Assembly (NCBI GenBank): GCA_046483985.1
Contig: JAWOCD010000090.1
Coordinates: 58,294-122,293, forward strand
DNA: 64,000 nucleotides
Direction of reading: 5' to 3'
From: Promethearchaeia archaeon
GTDB taxonomy: Archaea > Asgardarchaeota > Lokiarchaeia > Sigyniarchaeales > SOKP01
A program made the position numbers and the translations under genes. Below, piece after piece: positions 22,884 through 38,030 of this stretch; position 1 is the stretch's first letter, and each line of letters begins with the position of its first letter. The notes beneath the pieces were generated by a model. It had not been told where the DNA came from, did not search any database, and saw only the letters and a program-made list of their open reading frames with translations.

Positions 22884-24125
22884 CTAAAAAATTTCGGATA
22901 ATTCTTGCGGTATCTTTGCCCTCTCATCCATCAGACTAAGAGCATAGACTTGTTCTCCACACCCACAAGGTTTGCCAACGAATAAGTAGTATTTGAACTC
23001 CTTCTTCCACGTACAGACTTTGATATCCTCGATCTCTGCGACTTCCCCACAGACACAATATATCTTATCTTTTTGGGGATAGTTGGGGATGACATCGTCA
23101 ATGTCTTTTGACGTTACTTCAAAATCGCTCTCATCCAACATCTTATTAATTTCGTCTGCTTTATTCTCTTTCAGAGTGGGTACAAAATTTTTAATTTTTC
23201 CATCCTCTGTGCGAATTTTGGTCAACACAATAAAATTGGTTTCTCCGCCTTCACTAATTTCTTGGGAGATCCCCATCTCTGCCTCCTCTTTCAATTGTTC
23301 TGGAATAGGAAATGGTTCTACATCATCGGGATAGTCAAACGTAAACACATATTGATACTTTCCTCTCGTTTTGCGTTGATTAATTAATTTTAAATTCTCA
23401 TAATCTGAGCTATGTAAGACAAATTTAATCAATTGAAGCGGTACTTCCCAATCAAGTAATTTAGTTCTCACATTAGCAAGTACATCGTTTACAAATCCTT
23501 TAATAATCAGGATATCGTCTCTATTCTTGGTATAAAATTCGTCACTGTGGGATCCTTTAAATTTATTCCATTTTTTTACCACATAGCTCCGGAGAAGGTT
23601 TGGAACCATACAGAACAGACAAACAAATGGTAATATGAAGATAGGATCGAGAAAGAACATCAGTATCGTTAATAGGCCAATCACAGGAAGAATTACAATT
23701 ATGCTCAGTCTTTTCATTTTTGTATCGACTGGTTTATCCACACCATGCTCAGCTGCTAAATCCTCTGCATTTTTTTTTAAATTCTCAACGGTGGAGAGAA
23801 TTCGTTTTTCTTCGAATCCCTTTTGTAATAGTTTATCTTCTTCGTTGCCCTTTCCGAACTTTTCTACAAGATCTTTAATCTCCTCTTGATATTCCGAAAT
23901 TTTATCATCTTTATAGATAAAGTCAAATGACTCTTCTGAAAAATAATCAAGAAATCTGGAGATAAATAACTTTTTCTCAATTTCTTCAATTTGCTCTTGG
24001 GTGAGTCCTAATGCGTCTTGAATCATTGCCGCTTGTGATTCGTTTTTAGAACTTTTTTTTTCCGTTTCTTCGTTTATTTCTGTTTTTTCCTTTTTTATTT
24101 CATCTTCTTTCTTCGTATTTTTCAT
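22884..24125 (-). CDS. Hypothetical two-TM membrane protein with C-terminal Cys cluster (zinc-ribbon-like)
   Basis: TM hairpin LSIIVILPVIGLLTILMFFLDPIFILPFVCLFCMV; YCVCG...PCGCG. Confidence 0.7.
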   Translation of the reverse strand: MKNTKKEDEIKKEKTEINEETEKKSSKNESQAAMIQDALGLTQEQIEEIEKKLFISRFLDYFSEESFDFIYKDDKISEYQEEIKDLVEKFGKGNEEDKLLQKGFEEKRILSTVENLKKNAEDLAAEHGVDKPVDTKMKRLSIIVILPVIGLLTILMFFLDPIFILPFVCLFCMVPNLLRSYVVKKWNKFKGSHSDEFYTKNRDDILIIKGFVNDVLANVRTKLLDWEVPLQLIKFVLHSSDYENLKLINQRKTRGKYQYVFTFDYPDDVEPFPIPEQLKEEAEMGISQEISEGGETNFIVLTKIRTEDGKIKNFVPTLKENKADEINKMLDESDFEVTSKDIDDVIPNYPQKDKIYCVCGEVAEIEDIKVCTWKKEFKYYLFVGKPCGCGEQVYALSLMDERAKIPQELSEIF

Positions 24126-25404: not shown

Positions 25405-26244
25405 TTAAACTCTGAGGGTTATCGGTTCTATCCCTGTTTGCTTTCCGAATGAGGGGATAATCCACATATACATACAATACTTAGTATCTTTGTAAAAGGG
25501 ACGGGCAAAATTACTATGCCCTAAACTGCCAGGGAAAAATAAACCTTCTCCATCACTTAAGTCACGGCATACGGACTCTCCATCAACATTTATCATATAT
25601 TGGGAGACGGAATAATTAGGATCATCAATGCACATGATATAGACTTCTGGAAATCCAGGATGGATATGCGGATAGACCTCGGTTCTTCCACTTTCATTTT
25701 CCTCTAAGTTGACACTCGTAATGACCCCTTGTTGTAATGATTTGGGGGGAATATTTGTAAATCCTGCCATGTAATACTCATTTTTAATCGCTGTCCATAC
25801 CGTTCGAAAGGTAGCCATTTTTTCTTCGTTCCCATGTTCCCCTCTGTCGATAAACTTCTCGGCACCGTAATGCGCAACTTGAAAATCGCTTGAACCCAAT
25901 TTATCTATTGAAGAATGTACTAAACAGATTTTATGGATTTGATTGGGTCCAAGACGTCTGGTTAGTTCTAATTCGGTATCTGGGGGAAGGAAAAAGAAGT
26001 CAAAACGTTCTAACTCATATTCCATCATCTTATAGACGATGGTTGCTTCCCCCGACAGTAAACAGCCGCACACTCCCTCTTTTTCCTTCGCTGAAATTTG
26101 TAAATCATCCTCCACATAGAAATATTCCATGTTAATCCCATTCAAAGTTCTCTGAATCTTTTCTTCCGTAGGATCATTTAAATAGTAGGAATTCATCCGA
26201 TCTCGTGAGAGGGGCTCAATTTTTTCTGAATTTGCTTTACTCAT
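25405..26244 (-). CDS. Bicupin protein (IolB/KduI-like isomerase fold)
   Basis: LLSGEATI...FDFFFLPPDT; YPHIHPGFPEVY metal motif; GH near the C-terminus. Confidence 0.65.
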   Translation of the reverse strand: MSKANSEKIEPLSRDRMNSYYLNDPTEEKIQRTLNGINMEYFYVEDDLQISAKEKEGVCGCLLSGEATIVYKMMEYELERFDFFFLPPDTELELTRRLGPNQIHKICLVHSSIDKLGSSDFQVAHYGAEKFIDRGEHGNEEKMATFRTVWTAIKNEYYMAGFTNIPPKSLQQGVITSVNLEENESGRTEVYPHIHPGFPEVYIMCIDDPNYSVSQYMINVDGESVCRDLSDGEGLFFPGSLGHSNFARPFYKDTKYCMYMWIIPSFGKQTGIEPITLRV

Positions 26245-26439: not shown

Positions 26440-27627
26440 TTAAGAGATTTTGTTTTGTATTCTCACTTTCTTTTGTGAATTATCTTCAAAAATGCTCACT
26501 ATAGCATTAATCCCTTTTTGTTTTAACTTCAATTCAATTTCTTTTTCCTCGTTTTGTCTCCATTCATTATATCCGGTAAGGATTGGCTCTGTTTCAAATA
26601 GTCCTCGTTGGAGCCCAGTTAATTTTACGGTTACCCCCTCGAGATTTTCATTTGACATATTTTTTATCGAGAGGATATATTTATTCTCTTTAGCATCAAT
26701 GGAGGTAACACTAAATCGCTTTTCAAATTGCGAATTTGCACCCTCAAATAATCCTGGGGTTTGTGCTTTCCGAGCTGCGAATAAATCCAATTCTTCTTCC
26801 TTTATCTCTTTCATCTTGGCGATGGTTATGGGCACTTCTAACTCTATGGGTTTACCCCTTCTTCGCGGTCTGCCTAGAATTTTTAACGACCATCGGGAAT
26901 AATCGCCATAGCGAAATCCCCATTCTTCTTTTTCCGAAGAGGACCAGAGATAATCATGGCTCGGCTCAGCAATTTCAGGAACTTTAATCAATAAATATCC
27001 TTTCTCCGTATTATCGGTTTTTGCTTTACCTGCAATAGCAGGAGGGAGTTTTTGAACTTGACTGCAATTTTTTCCATATGCTTGACAATGACAGATTAAG
27101 TTGGCACTTTGAAGCAATCTTATTTCAATCTCTCTTAATTCTTCAGAAGTATAATTGATCTTTATCGTTTCGCCGGGTTTAAACACGTCCTTCTTGAGAT
27201 TTATTTCAAGTCCAGAAATGGATAAGGACACTGGATGCGGTTTTTTTTTCTCTTCGGAGGGTTTTGGGAGTATCGCTATTTCGTGTGCTTTTTTTATGGT
27301 AATTGCTTCGTCCGGGTTAATCGGGCTTATTTGTCGTAAAACTAAATGAACCTTATATTCCAAATCCCTTTTCTTAATGGTTGGAACTACATTTGATTTA
27401 ATTAGCATCGGACGGGTTCTAATGTAAGTTCCCGCTTCAAAATGTCCCTTGGGAAAGACTTCTTGTTTGTTAATTTGAAGCTCTTTGTCACAAGGAGGTT
27501 GTGTGATTAAACGGATACCACTCCATAATATGTCTTTGTCCTCCTCAAACTCATATTCCGCTTTAATGCCGAGTTTGTCCCCCACAAACACAGATCCGTT
27601 GTTTAAATCACTTAATTTCAGATTCAT
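26440..27627 (-). CDS. Arrestin/Vps26/SpoOM-like protein with an extra C-terminal Ig-like domain
   Basis: Arrestin-N-like FEAGTY...VVPT...LEYKVHLVL; arrestin-C-like LEINLKKDVFKPGETIKI...IEIRLLQ...IELEVPITI; third beta-rich domain at aa ~303-395. Confidence 0.65.
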   Translation of the reverse strand: MNLKLSDLNNGSVFVGDKLGIKAEYEFEEDKDILWSGIRLITQPPCDKELQINKQEVFPKGHFEAGTYIRTRPMLIKSNVVPTIKKRDLEYKVHLVLRQISPINPDEAITIKKAHEIAILPKPSEEKKKPHPVSLSISGLEINLKKDVFKPGETIKINYTSEELREIEIRLLQSANLICHCQAYGKNCSQVQKLPPAIAGKAKTDNTEKGYLLIKVPEIAEPSHDYLWSSSEKEEWGFRYGDYSRWSLKILGRPRRRGKPIELEVPITIAKMKEIKEEELDLFAARKAQTPGLFEGANSQFEKRFSVTSIDAKENKYILSIKNMSNENLEGVTVKLTGLQRGLFETEPILTGYNEWRQNEEKEIELKLKQKGINAIVSIFEDNSQKKVRIQNKIS

Positions 27628-27791
27628 TTCTCATTAATCCTATGAAAATAGATATTTGATATTGTATAATCTATGATTGATATTATATTTTAGTAATAGT
27701 AATGATAATAATAATAATTTTTTTTCTTATTTCAATAATTATGAGGGAGAATGAAGAAATAATTAAAAAGAATAATAAATTTAAAAAAAAT

Positions 27792-28700
27792 TTATTCTGA
27801 ATGTGCTGAGATAACCACGTCGGCAAATAATTTCATGTCGTTAAGTAGCGTGTTAAGCTTTTCTTGGGAATCCATATCAAACTCGCCGGACTTCATGACA
27901 AGCACGGAAATAATATATTTAAAGATATGCAATTCGATTTCTTGCCCGTCATCGTTCCGACCCTTGAAATCGGCAGAGTCCGACATAAAGATGTTCTCTC
28001 GCACAGTATTACATGCATTAATAAAGTCTCGCAAATCTCCTCTGAGGGTGAGTCCCGAACTAACTCCCTTTACGTTATGAACAATCACATTCCCGGAAAT
28101 ATCTGAGATGATAATCTTGGCGTCTATGTCCTCTAACTTTTCCTCAGCTTTTTCTACATGTTCTTTTAGTTCTGAATAGGAGCTAATAAGAATATCTCGG
28201 AAAATTGTTGCCAGCTTGTCTTGGTTGTAAATTGAGGTCAGATAATACTCAAATTCATAGTCCTTAAACATATCTAAGAATTTTTCTTTTGCCTTTTTCA
28301 CATTTGTATCTAACATTTCTTTCTCATAATCCTTAGTGTCGTACTTATGAAGAAACAGAAAAATCTTGGGTTTCTCATTGATTTTCCTGTGAGTTTTTAA
28401 AATTCCCTCAAAATATTCTTTGGCTTGCTCAAACGAGCTGGGATCATGTAAGTCAACAATAGGTATCAGAATGTCATCTCCTCTGAACAAGTCAGGCTTT
28501 TCAAGATATTCCTGTCTGTACTGTTTTTGACCTCCAAAATCGAAGATTCCGACTTGCAACCCCAGAAATGGATGCCGTCTCGTCTCATATAAAATTGTAG
28601 GACTCAAGTCCTTCGTATCTGTAGGACTTTTGCCAGCAAACGCTACAGAATAAAGAGAAGTCTTTCCACAGCCCGAAAGTCCCACTAGACTAATTTTCAT
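27792..28700 (-). CDS. Rag/Gtr-like small GTPase with C-terminal roadblock/longin-like domain
   Basis: GLSGCGKTS, SPTI, HPFLG, FDFGGQ, LHKYD (His-type G4 as in Rag/Gtr), LTSIY; C-terminal ~120 aa IIISDISGNVI. Confidence 0.85.
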   Translation of the reverse strand: MKISLVGLSGCGKTSLYSVAFAGKSPTDTKDLSPTILYETRRHPFLGLQVGIFDFGGQKQYRQEYLEKPDLFRGDDILIPIVDLHDPSSFEQAKEYFEGILKTHRKINEKPKIFLFLHKYDTKDYEKEMLDTNVKKAKEKFLDMFKDYEFEYYLTSIYNQDKLATIFRDILISSYSELKEHVEKAEEKLEDIDAKIIISDISGNVIVHNVKGVSSGLTLRGDLRDFINACNTVRENIFMSDSADFKGRNDDGQEIELHIFKYIISVLVMKSGEFDMDSQEKLNTLLNDMKLFADVVISAHSE

Positions 28701-28792
28701 TTTTAGTTTGATTTCCTCTTTATATTTTAATATCTATAATAATGTATTTCATTTATATTTTAAATTAATTTTAAATTAAAAAAATTTGATTT

Positions 28793-30262
28793 TTATTTTG
28801 GTCCAAATGATCGTGTCTTACTATAAATCTTACCGTATTCGTCGGAGACCGCTTCCAGCAATACATCGCCTTCTGAATCTTCTGCTTGATAATCAATTTC
28901 GATTGTTTCATACGGAAAGAGTTCCTTTATATTCGTAACCCACGGATTCTTTTCAAACATGTCCTCCAAGGTGACCACTCTGATTTTAACATTCTCTAGG
29001 ATAAATCCCACCGTATTTTGGATGGTAAAATGAATAATATTATCCTCCTCGTCGAATTTCTTACGTACACTTAAGGCCCTTCGTGACTCCAGTATATGTT
29101 TTGTCTTTGTATCCTCCGGTTTTGTTTCCATTCGCTCTTCTTCTTCTTCTTCTTCCATATCCCGTACGATAAAAACCTTTCTCTTTTGGATATTGTATTG
29201 AGAAACTTTTTTTAATTTTGCCAAAAAGAGCACCGAATTGAGGTTAATCTCATTGTAGGGTTTAATAGTCAGATATTCTTTTTCAGCGGCATCTTCGATA
29301 ATTTCCGTTCCAATGCCCGAGCGGGCAAACACGGTGTTTTTTTTTGCTTCGCTCCCGACCGACCCAACGGAAATATCAGCATTTTCGCAGGCCAAATCGG
29401 TACAAAAATTGCAGCTGGAGGATTTATATTTATGTAGGGATTTAATTGAATAGGATTTGACGGGATCATCATCCTCATCGTAATAAACATGGAATTTTCC
29501 CTTATTAATGTCCATTTTCTCGACCTTTTCCAAATCGACCCCATCTTTTTCAAACATGGGATATAGGGACTCCGGAGAAAATGAATCCATACAGAAAAGC
29601 CCTATTTTGAGCACATGTGCCCTCATAAAATAGCGAAGCATCCCCGCGGGGGAATTCATCATTTTATCAACAGCGTTGATATTGCACGGCGTTCCCACGA
29701 AGGCAATAGAACGGTAATCTTCCCGAATCGCTTCCATTAGCGCCTCAACCGTTTGCGAATGGCAGTAAATCGAACCCGCAGCTTTTATGGCATCGTCCTT
29801 GTTGGTTACGATTTGAGCCACGGGATACCATGGATTATCGGGATCTTTCATGGTGACAACGGCCGCATCGATCAATTTTTCATCAAATAGGTAACATAAT
29901 AAGCTTGTCACGGTTCCTCCATCTTGGTAACCGAGTACCTCGGGTATATCCGTATTAGCGACGTAACCGGTATCAAATTCTCCGATCAATTGAACCGGGT
30001 CCGTTATAGTTCTGGGGCATTGATTATAACAAATTCCGCATCCGGTACATTTGCCGACCAACCGTGGTTGTCCTTTAACATGGTCCCATTCTAAGACAGG
30101 ACAAACGGCGGCACACGTTCCGCATTCAGTACAGATCCCCGTTCTGATGACTTCTTTCATAAGTTTTCCATATGAATCTTTTTTACCCTCGAGCTTCTTT
30201 TGAATGTAGTCAAAAGAGTATTCGTATTTTGTTTCGTCTTCTTTTACTTCATTTTCCGTCAT
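28793..30262 (-). CDS. FrhB/FdhB-family (F420-interacting) protein with 2x[4Fe-4S] ferredoxin and an extra C-terminal Ig-like domain
   Basis: CTECGTCAAVCP, CTGCGICYNQCP, QDGGTVT, VGTPC, IGLFCM, CNFCTD, ADISVGSVG; poly-E linker followed by a ~96-aa beta-rich domain. Confidence 0.9.
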   Translation of the reverse strand: MTENEVKEDETKYEYSFDYIQKKLEGKKDSYGKLMKEVIRTGICTECGTCAAVCPVLEWDHVKGQPRLVGKCTGCGICYNQCPRTITDPVQLIGEFDTGYVANTDIPEVLGYQDGGTVTSLLCYLFDEKLIDAAVVTMKDPDNPWYPVAQIVTNKDDAIKAAGSIYCHSQTVEALMEAIREDYRSIAFVGTPCNINAVDKMMNSPAGMLRYFMRAHVLKIGLFCMDSFSPESLYPMFEKDGVDLEKVEKMDINKGKFHVYYDEDDDPVKSYSIKSLHKYKSSSCNFCTDLACENADISVGSVGSEAKKNTVFARSGIGTEIIEDAAEKEYLTIKPYNEINLNSVLFLAKLKKVSQYNIQKRKVFIVRDMEEEEEEERMETKPEDTKTKHILESRRALSVRKKFDEEDNIIHFTIQNTVGFILENVKIRVVTLEDMFEKNPWVTNIKELFPYETIEIDYQAEDSEGDVLLEAVSDEYGKIYSKTRSFGPK

Positions 30263-30490: not shown

Positions 30491-32116
30491 TTAAGGAGAT
30501 TTTTGTTGCTCTTCCATTTTCTCTAATCTCATCTGAATGGATTCAATTGCTTTAGTAGCATTAATGTGGACAAGCCGATGAAAGTCCTTCTGTTGTCTTT
30601 TTAAAGTATCCAAGACGAGTTTATCGCCGAATTTCCCGAGAAAGTTAATGATACTCATTTTTACCTTAAAACATTCTTTAGGATTTACATCTAAATAATC
30701 GGCAAGTAATTGTTTGGCTCTGAGAAAGGTTCTTTTATCTCCCTCATCGAGATTTAAATTAAGGCTTTCTTCCCAGTTTTGTTTAAAAATATTATAAATC
30801 GCATCCACTGCGACCTTTTTCAATAACCAATAAGTAGATTTACCTTGAATTATCTGAATAAGGGGCTCTATGGTGTTTTTACTGCCAATTTTACCCAAAG
30901 CGATAATTGCATTTTTTCTGACTTCTAAATTCCGTTCTTTAATTAATTTTAGGAGAGGGTTGATAAATTGTTTCTTGCCTATCTCACCCATCAAATAGGC
31001 AACGCTTTCTTCTAATAAATAATTCCGAGAATTAATGACTTCATGAAAATATGCAAAAGAAGCATCAGAACAATTAAGATATATCTTTTTTACAGCATCC
31101 AAAATATTCCATTTGAAATCTAAATCAATATATTCATAGGTTTCGTCTTCGATGTTAAGCGCATTCAACAGCCGGGGAACACAAGACTCATCGCCTATTT
31201 TTCCTAATACCCTAATCGCCTCTCGACTAACCTCATTGTAGAGATCATCTATAAGGAAAAAGAGTTCTCTGATAATATCTTCATCTTTTATTTTAAGCTT
31301 TCCGATTAAATTGATTGCATTTTTTTTAACCAGAAATTCTCCGTCTTTTAAAATACCCACCAGTTCCTCCTTCAAATCTTCCTCAAAAGTATCAAACACT
31401 AAGAGACATTTATCGTTAAACTCCACATCTTTCTTTTCTAAACAGGTACCGATAAATTTACATAATTCATCTCGCTTGGATAAGAGTTCGGATAAAACTT
31501 CCGAATCTTCTAATACTTGTTCATTTTCATCCTTTAATGTAGGGGGGAGATCAGCCAATAGGGAGCCGATTAGTTCAATGATCGAAATTTTATGGTCCGA
31601 GCTAAAAGATTTATCTCGGATAGAATTCAGTAAAAAGGCAATACATTTTTGTGGATTCAAATCCAAAATACAATTTTTAATAAATTCTTGTATGGCTTTT
31701 GATTTGAATTGTAATTGTTGGATCAGTAATTCCAGTTCCTCTTCCTTCGGATGGATTTTTAATACAGCCTTTAAAGCATCTAACCTGACTTCCAGGTCAA
31801 TTTCCCCATTTTCCAATATCCATTTTAGCGGTTCTAAGGCTTTCTCAGTTTTGAGATTTCCCAATGATTTTGCTGCTTCACGTTTTACATCTTGATTTTT
31901 TTCGGTAATTACTATATCTTCTAAAACATCAAAGCATCTATTTTTTAGTTGGTCTGAGTTGCTGGATAGAAGTCCCAAATATTTAACTGACTTCCTCCTT
32001 AAACTAATATCCCGCTCTTTATCGATAATCTCAACTAATAAATAAACTGTATTATCTAAACCCAGTTTATCTCGTTTTTTATAAATCTCTTCGGGCAATA
32101 ATTTAGTTTTTATCAT
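30491..32116 (-). CDS. HEAT/PBS-lyase repeat protein
   Basis: Repeated VKREAAKSLGNL, VKKNAINLIGKL, VSREAIRVLGKIG, VRKNAIIALGKIG. Confidence 0.9.
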   Translation of the reverse strand: MIKTKLLPEEIYKKRDKLGLDNTVYLLVEIIDKERDISLRRKSVKYLGLLSSNSDQLKNRCFDVLEDIVITEKNQDVKREAAKSLGNLKTEKALEPLKWILENGEIDLEVRLDALKAVLKIHPKEEELELLIQQLQFKSKAIQEFIKNCILDLNPQKCIAFLLNSIRDKSFSSDHKISIIELIGSLLADLPPTLKDENEQVLEDSEVLSELLSKRDELCKFIGTCLEKKDVEFNDKCLLVFDTFEEDLKEELVGILKDGEFLVKKNAINLIGKLKIKDEDIIRELFFLIDDLYNEVSREAIRVLGKIGDESCVPRLLNALNIEDETYEYIDLDFKWNILDAVKKIYLNCSDASFAYFHEVINSRNYLLEESVAYLMGEIGKKQFINPLLKLIKERNLEVRKNAIIALGKIGSKNTIEPLIQIIQGKSTYWLLKKVAVDAIYNIFKQNWEESLNLNLDEGDKRTFLRAKQLLADYLDVNPKECFKVKMSIINFLGKFGDKLVLDTLKRQQKDFHRLVHINATKAIESIQMRLEKMEEQQKSP

Positions 32117-35394: not shown

Positions 35395-36894
35395 ATGGTT
35401 CAAAAAATAGAAAAAGACGTATTTTCGGATTTTTCTTCAAAAGAATTAATGGATGCAACTTATTGGGCTGCCCAAAACTTCCAAATTAGGGGTTTTTATG
35501 AAGCAAAGGAAGACATTCTTAAATGCGGCAAGTTTTCTGAAGAGCAATTCTTTGAGATTTTTGATACAATGGTTGATGCCGAAACTGAGCGGAAGATCAT
35601 CTTGGCACGATTGCGGAAATTTAATGATTTACTTTCTCTGAACCAGATTGTTGATCGGTTTCCGGAATTTCCACGGGAACAAGTGATTCGCAATGTGATC
35701 TATCTAAAAGAACAAGGATTTATAGAAGAGATTGAAGAAATCAAAACCAAAAAGATTATGAAAAAAGTAAAAGGTGAGGAGAAGGAAATAGAGTCAAAGC
35801 AATACTTCTATAAATATCAACCAAAAAGTCTTTCCGACGATCATTACGAGCATTACTTTACCCCCGTTTCACTGATATATGAAGCCGGCGTCTGCTCTAA
35901 TTGTGGCTGGTGTTCTTCTATTTGTCCGGTCGATGCCGTTAAGATGGATCCTGAGACTCTAGAGATAGATGATGATTTATGCATTAAATGCGGCTTGTGT
36001 TATTCAGTCTGTCCCCGATCCTTTTCTATCGACCGAGTGTATGAGAATATAGCACATTTGGATTCAGCCATCACATTTTCGGAAAAAGTCGGAGCCTATT
36101 TAAATATGTATTCTGGAACCACATCTAAAAAGCAAATTAAAGAGGTTCGACAGGACGGCGGGATTGTTACCTCGCTATTTGCATATTTATTGGAGGAAGA
36201 CTTAGTAGATGCCATTATTGCGGTTCAGCACTCAAATGATCCTTGGCGACCCGAACCCGTTATCGTGGAGACTATCTCAAATCTCTATAAAACAGCAGGC
36301 ACGAAATATGCAAACGCGCCAGTATTAAGCATTATTGATGCAGCTCAAGAGTATGAAAGGATTGCTATAGTGGGTGTTCCGTGTATGGTAAAAGCTCTCT
36401 ATAAAGGTGCGCTTTACCCCATGGGATCACCCTTTTTTAAGAACATAAAATATATCATCGGGCTCTTTTGTATGGAATCCTTTTCCTATGCAGCGATTGT
36501 TGATTTAATACAAGAAAAATTCGACCAAGACATCAGCCAACTGACGAAGATGAATATCGATAAGGGAAAATTCATAATAAATTTACAATCTGGAGAGCAA
36601 ATGACAGTTCCCTTAAAAGAAATCAATTCTTATGCACGGGACCAATGTCATTTCTGCGAGGATCTTACTTCCGAATACGCCGACATCTCAGTAGGCTCAA
36701 TCGGATCTCCGGGGGGAAGATCGACGGTAATTACCAGAACCGAGAATGGAGAAGACATCTATCAAGGTGCCATAAGCAAGGGATACATTGATTCAAAACC
36801 AATAGATAAGGTTAAACCTGGTCAATTTCTTGTAGAAAAAATCGCGGGTATAAAACGAAAGAAATGTAAAACGATTAATTTAACAAAAAACTAG
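35395..36894 (+). CDS. FrhB/FdhB-family protein with an N-terminal helical/winged-helix extension
   Basis: CSNCGWCSSICP, CIKCGLCYSVCP, QDGGIVT, AGTKY, VGVPC, IGLFCME, ADISVGSIG. Confidence 0.9.
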   Translation: MVQKIEKDVFSDFSSKELMDATYWAAQNFQIRGFYEAKEDILKCGKFSEEQFFEIFDTMVDAETERKIILARLRKFNDLLSLNQIVDRFPEFPREQVIRNVIYLKEQGFIEEIEEIKTKKIMKKVKGEEKEIESKQYFYKYQPKSLSDDHYEHYFTPVSLIYEAGVCSNCGWCSSICPVDAVKMDPETLEIDDDLCIKCGLCYSVCPRSFSIDRVYENIAHLDSAITFSEKVGAYLNMYSGTTSKKQIKEVRQDGGIVTSLFAYLLEEDLVDAIIAVQHSNDPWRPEPVIVETISNLYKTAGTKYANAPVLSIIDAAQEYERIAIVGVPCMVKALYKGALYPMGSPFFKNIKYIIGLFCMESFSYAAIVDLIQEKFDQDISQLTKMNIDKGKFIINLQSGEQMTVPLKEINSYARDQCHFCEDLTSEYADISVGSIGSPGGRSTVITRTENGEDIYQGAISKGYIDSKPIDKVKPGQFLVEKIAGIKRKKCKTINLTKN

Positions 36895-36902
36895 AAAGGG
36901 TT

Positions 36903-38030
36903 TTGAATATGGTTAAAACTTTTGAGGATCTAATCCATGAGGTTCATGAAAAAAATATTTGTCAACAATGTGGAGGCTGTGTAAGTTTCTGCAGCTCGGC
37001 AGAATTTGATGTTATCGGTTTCAAAGACCCATTTGAGCCCCCAGAATATATAAATGAAGATCAATGCCTTGAATGCGGGATATGTTATTATATCTGCCCT
37101 CAAACCCACGTATTGGATTCCGAATTAAATCAAGCATTTAATTTCTCTGGCTATGATTCCATGCTAATCGGTTCCTATAAAGATGTATATTCATGTCAAG
37201 CAACAGATAAAAAATTCCTTAGTCATGGAACAGATGGGGGGGTGGTAAATTCCGTCATAAATTACTTGATTGAAAAGAAGAATATAGATGGAGCTATTGT
37301 TTCCAAAACAAAATCTCCGTTTTCACGAGAAGCAACTTTTGCCTCTTCTAAAGAAACCTTACTTAATGCCTCGGGTGCTCAATTTAACATTTCTCCTCAT
37401 TTAAATGAGATTCAAAAATTCAGTACATATCCTCATACTATTCCCGAATTAAACCATTATAAGTTTAAAAAATTAGCAGTGGTAGGCACACCGTGCCAGT
37501 TATATACCATTAGATGTATGCAAGAATTAGGCGTAACCCCTTCAGAAAATATTGGAATCTGTTTGGGGTTATTTTGTTACGAAAATTTTTGTTTTGATAA
37601 GTCCCAGATTGAAAAATTTGAGAGAGATTTCAATATCGAGTATGAGGATATTGAAAAAATTAATATCAAGAAAGATGTTGTGTTTAAACTTAAAGATGAG
37701 GGACAAGGAGGAAAAACTATCCATATCCCTTTTAATCATCTTAAGGATTATATGAGAGATGCATGTAAAGCATGTAATGACTTCCCTAATATTTATTCCG
37801 ATATTTCCTTTGGAGGATTGGGCTCTCCTGAGAAATATACCACAGTAATTCCGAGAACTGATATAGGGATGGAATTATTTCAAGAAGTCCTCAATGCGGG
37901 AATTATCGAATGTAGAAATGTCGACCAATCCGTTAAGGAAAAAATGCTCAGTACGATATCCCAATTTTCTAAGAAAAAAATTCAACGTAAGTCAGAATTT
38001 ATGAAAACTATTAAATCAGATGGTGAATAA
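36903..38030 (+). CDS. FrhB/FdhB-family protein
   Basis: CQQCGGCVSFC, CLECGICYYICP, TDGGVV, VGTPCQ, LGLFCYE, SDISFGGLG. Confidence 0.9.
   Translation: MNMVKTFEDLIHEVHEKNICQQCGGCVSFCSSAEFDVIGFKDPFEPPEYINEDQCLECGICYYICPQTHVLDSELNQAFNFSGYDSMLIGSYKDVYSCQATDKKFLSHGTDGGVVNSVINYLIEKKNIDGAIVSKTKSPFSREATFASSKETLLNASGAQFNISPHLNEIQKFSTYPHTIPELNHYKFKKLAVVGTPCQLYTIRCMQELGVTPSENIGICLGLFCYENFCFDKSQIEKFERDFNIEYEDIEKINIKKDVVFKLKDEGQGGKTIHIPFNHLKDYMRDACKACNDFPNIYSDISFGGLGSPEKYTTVIPRTDIGMELFQEVLNAGIIECRNVDQSVKEKMLSTISQFSKKKIQRKSEFMKTIKSDGE

Follow-up and report, generated by a model that had tools for sequence, protein, structure and literature searches.

The present analysis concerns a stretch of 64,000 nucleotides (hereafter, the window) from the genome of a Promethearchaeia archaeon (assembly GCA_046483985.1, contig JAWOCD010000090.1, positions 58,294 to 122,293 of the forward strand), in which the genes of an arrestin-like protein (26440..27627, minus strand) and of an FrhB-like flavo-iron-sulfur protein (28793..30262, minus strand) flank the gene of a Rag/Gtr1-type GTPase (27792..28700, minus strand). 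The three genes are arranged head to tail. Both flanking proteins end with a domain of about 90 residues, referred to below as the tail, and profile comparisons confirm that the two tails are homologous copies of one domain. The tail is a new domain family, a distinct and narrow branch of the immunoglobulin-like (Ig-like) fold, while the gene cluster in which it occurs is a new variant of the Asgard Rag/longin systems, marked by this new domain of a known fold. We consider it probable that the tail is a shared protein-protein module for docking or assembling the members of a Rag-GTPase sensing complex, which redox enzymes would feed.

Homology of the Two Tails

In the arrestin-like protein P0001 (395 aa) the tail occupies residues ~303-395 (26440..26721 with the stop codon, minus strand; 89.8 bits with the tail profile), and in the FrhB-like protein P0002 (489 aa) it occupies residues ~394-489 (28793..29083 with the stop codon, minus strand; 110.7 bits with the merged tail profile, E 3e-32 in the genome). 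Each tail is preceded by a charged linker: that of P0001 (residues ~271-302, 26722..26817, minus strand) displays low conservation in the alignment of orthologues, and that of P0002 (residues ~367-393, 29084..29164, minus strand), acidic and of low complexity, is gapped and variable across its own alignment. A preliminary description of the window, made by eye from its letters, had noticed these linkers, an SV shared ahead of the tails, the position of the two genes on either side of the GTPase (all on the minus strand) and a hand alignment of the tails with 15 identities in 52 columns. All these observations were reproduced, BLASTP giving 16/57 identities with one gap (E 0.001), and so was the statement that the other two FrhB paralogues of the window lack the tail: no tail-profile match was found in either of them (35395-36891 and 36903-38027, plus strand; FrhB core, phmmer E 1e-52 and 5e-27, respectively).

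Taken alone, this pair of tails is suggestive of homology and not decisive. Its Smith-Waterman score of 53, compared with 29 ± 5.4 for shuffles (z 4.5), was reached in 12 of 5000 shuffles of one tail and in 5 of 5000 of the other; shallow profiles of close orthologues gave P 0.0024 in an hhalign comparison of the two tails; phmmer with a single tail against all open reading frames of the genome did not link them (E 1.1). The alignment with shuffling statistics, proposed earlier as a check, thus gave a signal in the expected direction that did not decide the question for a single pair, so that profiles built from orthologues were needed, and these settle it.

Both tails are conserved among their own orthologues. 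When tail profiles were searched against about 300 Asgard genomes (E values are given per genome), the profile of the FrhB-like tails retrieved arrestin-like tails with E 1.8e-7 (G006) and 2.7e-6 (G082), and the profile of the arrestin-like tails retrieved an FrhB-like tail with E 1e-3 (G244). Comparison by hhalign of diverse, family-specific tail alignments related the arrestin-like tails to the FrhB-like ones with 98.5% probability (E 3.2e-15 over 94 columns) and also drew in the tails of a longin protein family described below, which matched the arrestin-like tails with 98.7% probability (E 3.5e-16) and the FrhB-like tails with 99.6% (E 9.4e-24). The N and C lobes of the arrestin-like protein, presumably beta-sandwiches as well, served as a negative control and obtained at most 4% probability against all three tail profiles; the origin of the tail from an arrestin lobe is therefore rejected.

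Fold, Signature and Specificity of the Tail Domain

An AlphaFold2 (AF2) model of residues 296-395 of the arrestin-like protein, calculated with a merged alignment of 35 tail sequences, is a seven-stranded Ig-like beta-sandwich (predicted local distance difference test, pLDDT, 89.6; predicted template modelling score, pTM, 0.80). This agrees with the fold that had been proposed for the tail from its sequence. The best solved match of the model is the Ig-like domain of a GH2 enzyme (Z 10.8, root-mean-square deviation, rmsd, 3.0, 98 residues aligned; VIA), 45 chains in all being found at Z >= 8 by the same comparison. Foldseek additionally related the model to the archaellum protein FlaF (E 1e-4), and the other structural matches comprise transglutaminase C-terminal domains, fibronectin type III domains, RhoGDI and PDE6-delta.

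The tails share the signature N-x-[ST] ... [FL]-F-E ... W-x-P-x-E-E, in which the N and one F are invariant and one E is nearly invariant (N28, F49 and E65 in tail numbering) across paralogues only ~20% identical to each other. None of the 35 tails scored above the gathering threshold of any Pfam family, and a sequence search of the PDB with the tail profile gave nothing significant, the best hit being beta-arrestin-2 at E 0.34. The three Atlas models closest to the tail bear the Promethearchaeota label, are annotated as ‘hypothetical proteins’ and have 344, 402 and 403 aa, which fits the lengths of the longin and arrestin-like families; an Atlas cluster of CARDB/NPCBM_assoc type also resembles the tail (template modelling score, TM, 0.79 by query).

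An exhaustive HMMER search of 1.84 billion representative sequences yielded 122 clusters at E <= 0.001. About 17 of them are long repeat proteins, which passed by the summation of CARDB/ASH-type stretches of at most 19 bits each, and the remaining ~105 contain one copy of the tail apiece, nearly always at the C-terminus. Fragments at contig ends aside, the proteins of the latter group fall into length bands of 300-325, 330-357, 385-406 and 490-510 aa, and wherever a taxon label was given it was Loki-, Hel- or Hodarchaeales/Promethearchaeota, i.e., Asgard in every case. The preliminary description had named a generic CARDB/NPCBM-type Ig domain, present on many unrelated proteins, as the finding that would speak against it. 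We reject that reading, because the repeat proteins reach no more than 19 bits per domain, none of the 35 tails has a CARDB match, and the 122 clusters are nearly all of the few protein types listed below. Existing annotations of tail-bearing proteins read ‘hypothetical’ or describe the FrhB part alone, and Asgard-focused literature searches, within the library searched, returned no account of a shared Ig-like domain, of its link to FrhB or GltD proteins, or of the three-gene arrangement.

Proteins Carrying the Tail

The tail was found on five protein types: arrestin-like, FrhB-like and GltD/NfnB-like proteins and two paralogous families of NPRL2/folliculin-like longin proteins. It is always attached through a disordered linker and is C-terminal in all cases but one fusion. 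The search of the source genome with the tail profile revealed exactly three tail proteins. The earlier proposal of one domain on two proteins of the locus is therefore correct as far as it goes; it had missed the third protein of the same genome, a longin one, and the further architectures.

The FrhB-like protein P0002 combines a 2x[4Fe-4S] ferredoxin domain with FrhB_N and FrhB_C domains, the linker and the tail. Its Pfam matches lie above the cut-offs (FrhB_FdhB_C, E 5e-42, 143.7 bits at a cut-off of 23.3; FrhB_FdhB_N, E 3e-20, 72.5 bits at a cut-off of 22), Fer4 families were matched too, and its orthologues of 483-500 aa retain the tail. In the arrestin-like protein P0001 the first 270 residues, forming two beta-rich lobes, represent the arrestin-like part. 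Here Pfam Arrestin_C was matched below threshold (E 0.044), 10 of the 20 family members matched it with a best E of 3.4e-5, and the best ten Atlas feature matches that have a family assignment all belong to the arrestin/Vps26 clan (scores 0.87-0.91). Sequence searches of the PDB with the profiles of the arrestin-like and longin families gave nothing significant, the best match of the former being, weakly, an arrestin-domain protein (E 0.021).

The arrestin-like family also possesses four nearly invariant cysteines, Cys46, Cys179, Cys181 and Cys188 (C46 and a C-x-C-x6-C cluster; 27490-27492 and 27064-27093 of the window, minus strand), and three of its members have weak matches to the SWIM zinc finger. 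This set could be a metal or redox-sensitive site.

The third tail protein of the source genome (346 aa) is encoded on another contig (G000:C41:93725-94765). In its AF2 model (pLDDT 81.8) a longin domain is followed by a helical stretch, to which a disordered linker (residues 215-243) connects the tail. The best solved matches of the longin model are chain 8fw5_B of a chimeric human GATOR1 complex (Z 10.7, 136 residues aligned) and chain 6nzd_H of the lysosomal folliculin complex (Z 10.6, 145 aligned), with other longins following within about one Z unit of the best match (Sec22, 10.1; BLOC-3, 9.8), so that the score does not separate the NPRL2/FLCN/SMCR8 subclass. Atlas matches of the same protein include NPR2, NPRL3 and folliculin clusters at TM ~0.5. 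The Foldseek search with the full model was dominated by the tail, and its top row, beta-arrestin 1 (TM 0.17, rmsd 26), was discarded as spurious.

In longins of the GTPase-activating protein (GAP) type, strand 2 begins with a GP motif (PMC12290439). The longin family described here has a nearly invariant Gly31 at the start of strand 2, followed mostly by His and in a few members by Pro; we infer that Gly31 corresponds to the GP-motif position. Strands 4 and 5 are joined by a conserved basic loop, K-S-x-R-x-K-x-R-x-G, which may represent an arginine finger. A second, paralogous longin family of ~320 aa (hhalign E 1.5e-47 with the first) is often encoded in tandem with the first one. In the source genome a GNAT acetyltransferase gene (L040:5178-5669, on G000:C41; Pfam E 1.5e-9) lies directly downstream of the longin-tail gene.

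Two further architectures were observed. The GltD/NfnB-like tail flavoprotein (577 aa) contains Fer4_20 and Pyr_redox_2 domains. In some genomes of the Hodarchaeales-labelled family f24 its gene, preceded by NuoF-like, NuoG/Fdh-like and NfnA-like genes, closes a row of four and replaces the FrhB-like one (L038:38-5421, G184:C129; also L039). The Helarchaeota-labelled protein P0066 (641 aa) comprises a longin domain, the tail and four CBS domains, and this is the only case seen in which the tail is not C-terminal; the fusion joins the longin-tail family to CBS proteins that elsewhere are encoded by separate neighbouring genes.

Conserved Linkage with a Rag-Type GTPase

The GTPase P0003 (302 aa, with a C-terminal extension) was assigned to Gtr1_RagA (E 4.7e-25, 88.8 bits at a cut-off of 22). 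Its P-loop GLSGCGKTS, DFGGQ motif and Rag-type HKYD G4 motif are kept in the family alignment, and residues ~170-302 are strongly conserved. Over the full length the protein is ~80% identical in well over 100 clusters from many metagenome-assembled genomes (MAGs), Loki-labelled, while the flanking tail proteins are far less conserved (56-84% full-length identity).

In six families, genomes were found in which tail-bearing genes cluster with this one highly conserved Rag/Gtr1-type GTPase. The order FrhB-tail, GTPase, arrestin-tail recurs in f4, f10 and f21, the GTPase lies between the two tail genes in f1, f4, f10 and f21, and the longin-tail and CBS genes adjoin the trio in f4 and are located 2.5-7 kb away from it in f21 and f10. 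The FrhB-tail and arrestin-tail genes share a contig in 48 of the 49 genomes in which both tails were listed, within 2.6 kb of each other in 19 genomes, within 7 kb in 15 more and within 28 kb in the rest. This synteny in several Asgard families extends the linkage of the two tails to the GTPase beyond the source genome and indicates that the domain is a specific module linked to the Rag-like GTPase locus, as had been suspected.

In f24 some genomes carry the FrhB-tail gene and others the GltD-tail gene. Of the latter, five were checked: in four of them the contig of the GltD-tail gene also encodes the GTPase orthologue (72-82% identity with the f24 reference) at a distance of ~5-7 kb, and in the fifth the orthologue is on a different contig. 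Genome searches of G207, G049 and G159, three genomes of one family that are 92-99% complete, found neither the FrhB and arrestin tails nor an orthologue of the GTPase. The longin-tail protein is kept in G207, G049 and G030, each of which has this one tail protein; the genomes examined in detail contain from one to four. It should be noted that these co-occurrence counts are descriptive and do not constitute a statistical test, as the genomes are related to each other.

The genus of G030 and G019 is devoid of both the FrhB-tail and arrestin-tail proteins. The GTPase orthologue there is diverged (58-66% identity) and apparently split or devoid of its first 52 residues, including the P-loop (G030, C62:3212-4148; G019, C13:16431-17189); it may be decaying. 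Two other neighbours were observed in the clusters: a pair of V4R-domain proteins downstream of the arrestin-like gene (L034:249-2864, G038), and a large membrane-anchored peptidase C25 protein between the FrhB-tail and longin-tail genes in two distant families (L034:7062-9080, L035:7642-10188).

Possible Function of the Tail

The distribution of the tail is best accounted for, in our opinion, if it is a shared docking or assembly module. By way of its flexible linker, a redox ‘input’ enzyme, the arrestin-like adaptor and the candidate longin regulators would be brought together, either in a single complex or on a partner common to them all; the complex would be that of the Rag-type GTPase switch, and the redox and energy state of the cell would thereby be coupled to this switch. 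The presence of the same tail on two alternative redox enzymes, together with the retention of its signature at ~20% identity, fits a common partner, and P0066 represents a Rosetta-stone fusion of a longin-tail protein to CBS domains. Several facts weigh against such a role. Complex prediction with the GTPase, described below, gave no confident model of binding by the tail. In G207 and G049 longin-tail proteins with a well conserved tail persist while the GTPase orthologue and both other tail proteins are gone, which means that the tail must have a role independent of the trio. Neither gene clustering nor joint loss counts as an independent observation where the genomes are related; an Ig-like domain may be a mere spacer or stabiliser; and some or all of the conserved tail residues may be core residues.

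A more specific version of the docking module can be put forward tentatively, as a possibility to which we would not yet commit ourselves. The tail would be the docking domain of an archaeal proto-GATOR/Rag complex, in which flavoenzymes using ferredoxin, F420 or NAD(P)H, along with CBS proteins, would report the redox and energy state, the longins would act as GAPs, and the arrestin-like adaptor would pass on the output of the one Rag-type GTPase. If true, it would be a prokaryotic forerunner of the eukaryotic Rag-based nutrient sensing, wired to redox metabolism instead of amino acids.

Direct docking of the tail on the Rag-like GTPase encoded beside it, with the tail proteins competing for the GTPase or occupying it together, is one of the options that the preliminary description had suggested, and we consider it rather unlikely. 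The location of the GTPase between the two tail genes in conserved synteny, the joint loss of the trio from three genomes and the constraint on the GTPase, exceeding that on its neighbours, would all agree with direct contact. Complex prediction for the GTPase and the arrestin-like tail, a check proposed earlier, added weak support, the median score being 0.38 compared with 0.00 for the best control (at least 13% of contacts agreeing between runs, partner pLDDT at least 72). One of the three runs scored 0.00, however. Of 80 solved complexes 58 attained the mark used, and so did 2 of 110 mismatched pairs; at scores <=0.60 it was attained by only 7 of the 80 and by both mismatches, and the prediction tool rates such a pass as more often wrong than right. 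Moreover, longin-tail proteins persist in G207 and G049, where a GTPase orthologue is missing, which argues that the GTPase is not the sole partner.

Alternatively, the tails might bind each other through homo- or heterotypic sandwich contacts, for instance with the longin paralogues pairing like NPRL2-NPRL3 or FLCN-FNIP. In favour of such pairing are the presence of one to four tail proteins per genome examined in detail (three in the source genome), the tandem longin paralogues of f24, both of which bear the tail, and the signature kept across paralogues, which would fit a symmetric interface. We nevertheless regard this possibility as doubtful, given that G207, G049 and G030 have a single tail protein, for which self-association alone would be possible.

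A role of the tail as a membrane-, lipid- or small-ligand-binding module localising its hosts would explain the persistence of longin-tail proteins without the trio, and RhoGDI and PDE6-delta, lipid-binding Ig-like sandwiches, do occur among the Foldseek matches (E ~1e-3, TM 0.45-0.51). These matches are no better than those of dozens of unrelated Ig-like domains, and we consider such a role improbable. Quite improbable, too, is that the tail is a structural addition of no functional consequence, which moved between neighbouring genes by domain shuffling and whose carriers have no partner in common. Ig-like domains are indeed common spacers, and the binding by the tail is putative. Against neutrality, the tail has been retained with a conserved signature on five architectures in Loki-, Hel- and Hodarchaeales-labelled genomes, it is carried by two alternative redox enzymes at the same locus, and it has been fused to CBS domains.

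Finally, the kinship of the tail with adaptin/COPI appendage (ear) domains, which the preliminary description had pointed to and which would make it a part of a proto-coat, is very improbable: a generic Ig-like fold on a flexible linker, sub-threshold Pfam matches to GAE_BBS1 (E 0.003) and COP-gamma_platf (E 0.024) in one of the 35 tails each, a BBSome chain (6vbu_9) at Z 8.1 and a HEAT-repeat gene upstream in the source genome speak for it, but none of the 35 tails reached any Pfam cut-off, 6vbu_9 lies within the background at Z ~8, the best structures are generic (GH2, transglutaminase C-terminal, FlaF, RhoGDI/PDE6-delta), the tail is borne by arrestin-like, FrhB-like, GltD-like and longin proteins with no HEAT/alpha-solenoid trunk, and the HEAT gene is not conserved in clusters of distant families. 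The structural matches listed do not include AP/COPI appendage chains, which may still occur outside that list.

GTPases of the Rag-, Arf- and Rab-like types, as well as longins, are numerous in Asgard archaea, and their roles are obscure. Asgard GTPases are rarely found in operons with candidate regulators, and partners therefore cannot be matched (PMC10933270). The tail domain and its gene cluster single out one Rag-type GTPase and propose partners for it, namely two longins, an arrestin-like protein, a redox enzyme and CBS proteins, while the tail itself is a possible physical handle that holds these proposed partners together. Besides bringing to light a domain family hitherto hidden under such uninformative annotations, this provides a testable lead, involving a handful of soluble proteins, to what the ancestor of the Rag/GATOR switch sensed and with which partners.

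Other Genes of the Locus

Upstream of the FrhB-like gene the window contains the gene of the HEAT-repeat protein (30491..32116, minus strand; Pfam HEAT_2, E 1.7e-33), a separate gene without the tail. In one close relative (L043) the HEAT gene is an immediate neighbour, in another (L042) it lies at a distance of 6 kb, and the clusters of distant families (L034-L038) do not contain it; we do not count it among the conserved components of the module. Two minus-strand genes located downstream of the arrestin-like one encode proteins of 279 and 413 aa that match no Pfam family (25405-26244 and 22884-24125, respectively), and L043 encodes proteins of 274 and 414 aa at the matching positions.

Comparison with Known Systems

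In eukaryotes, NPRL2-NPRL3 and FLCN-FNIP are paired longin GAPs for Rag GTPases. The Asgard locus resembles the eukaryotic GATOR1/folliculin-Rag-Ragulator machinery in that one or two paralogous longins, whose best solved matches are chains of GATOR1 and of the folliculin complex, are encoded together with a GTPase of the Gtr1/RagA family that has the Rag-type HKxD motif, and the CBS and redox proteins of the locus might be the sensors of a comparable nutrient-sensing system. It differs in possessing no TOR kinase, DEPDC5 or Ragulator. Its longins, unlike NPRL2 and FLCN, carry the Ig-like tail instead of a DENN or NPRL2 C-terminal domain, their GP motif reads mostly G-H, and their GAP role is putative. 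A further difference from the eukaryotic Rag system is that a redox flavoenzyme and an arrestin-like protein share the same tail, and to our knowledge this tail has no eukaryotic counterpart.

Several of the components were described in Asgard archaea before. NPRL2-like longins and Rag-like GTPases are known from them (bioRxiv 10.1101/2020.10.19.343400; PMC12290439; PMC10933270), GTPase-roadblock architectures were reported for lokiarchaeal Rag-like proteins (PMC10933270), and the eukaryotic-signature proteins of the group include, besides Rag-like GTPases and NPRL2-like longins, arrestin domains and adaptin-like HEAT proteins (bioRxiv 10.1101/2020.10.19.343400; PMC9834061; PMC10933270; PMC12290439).

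With respect to the domain itself, the tail shares with the adaptin/COPI appendages (Alpha_adaptinC2, GAE, gamma-COP) the organization of a small C-terminal Ig-like sandwich on a flexible linker, which in the appendages is a partner-recruiting hub; it differs from them in residing on non-solenoid proteins and in displaying neither a significant sequence match nor a standout structural one. The generic prokaryotic Ig domains (CARDB, ASH/DUF1573/PapD-like, GH2, transglutaminase C-terminal) belong to the same fold class as the tail. However, while those generic domains are mostly extracellular or repeated and occur on many unrelated proteins, the Asgard tail is present in a single copy, on cytosolic hosts of a few protein types.

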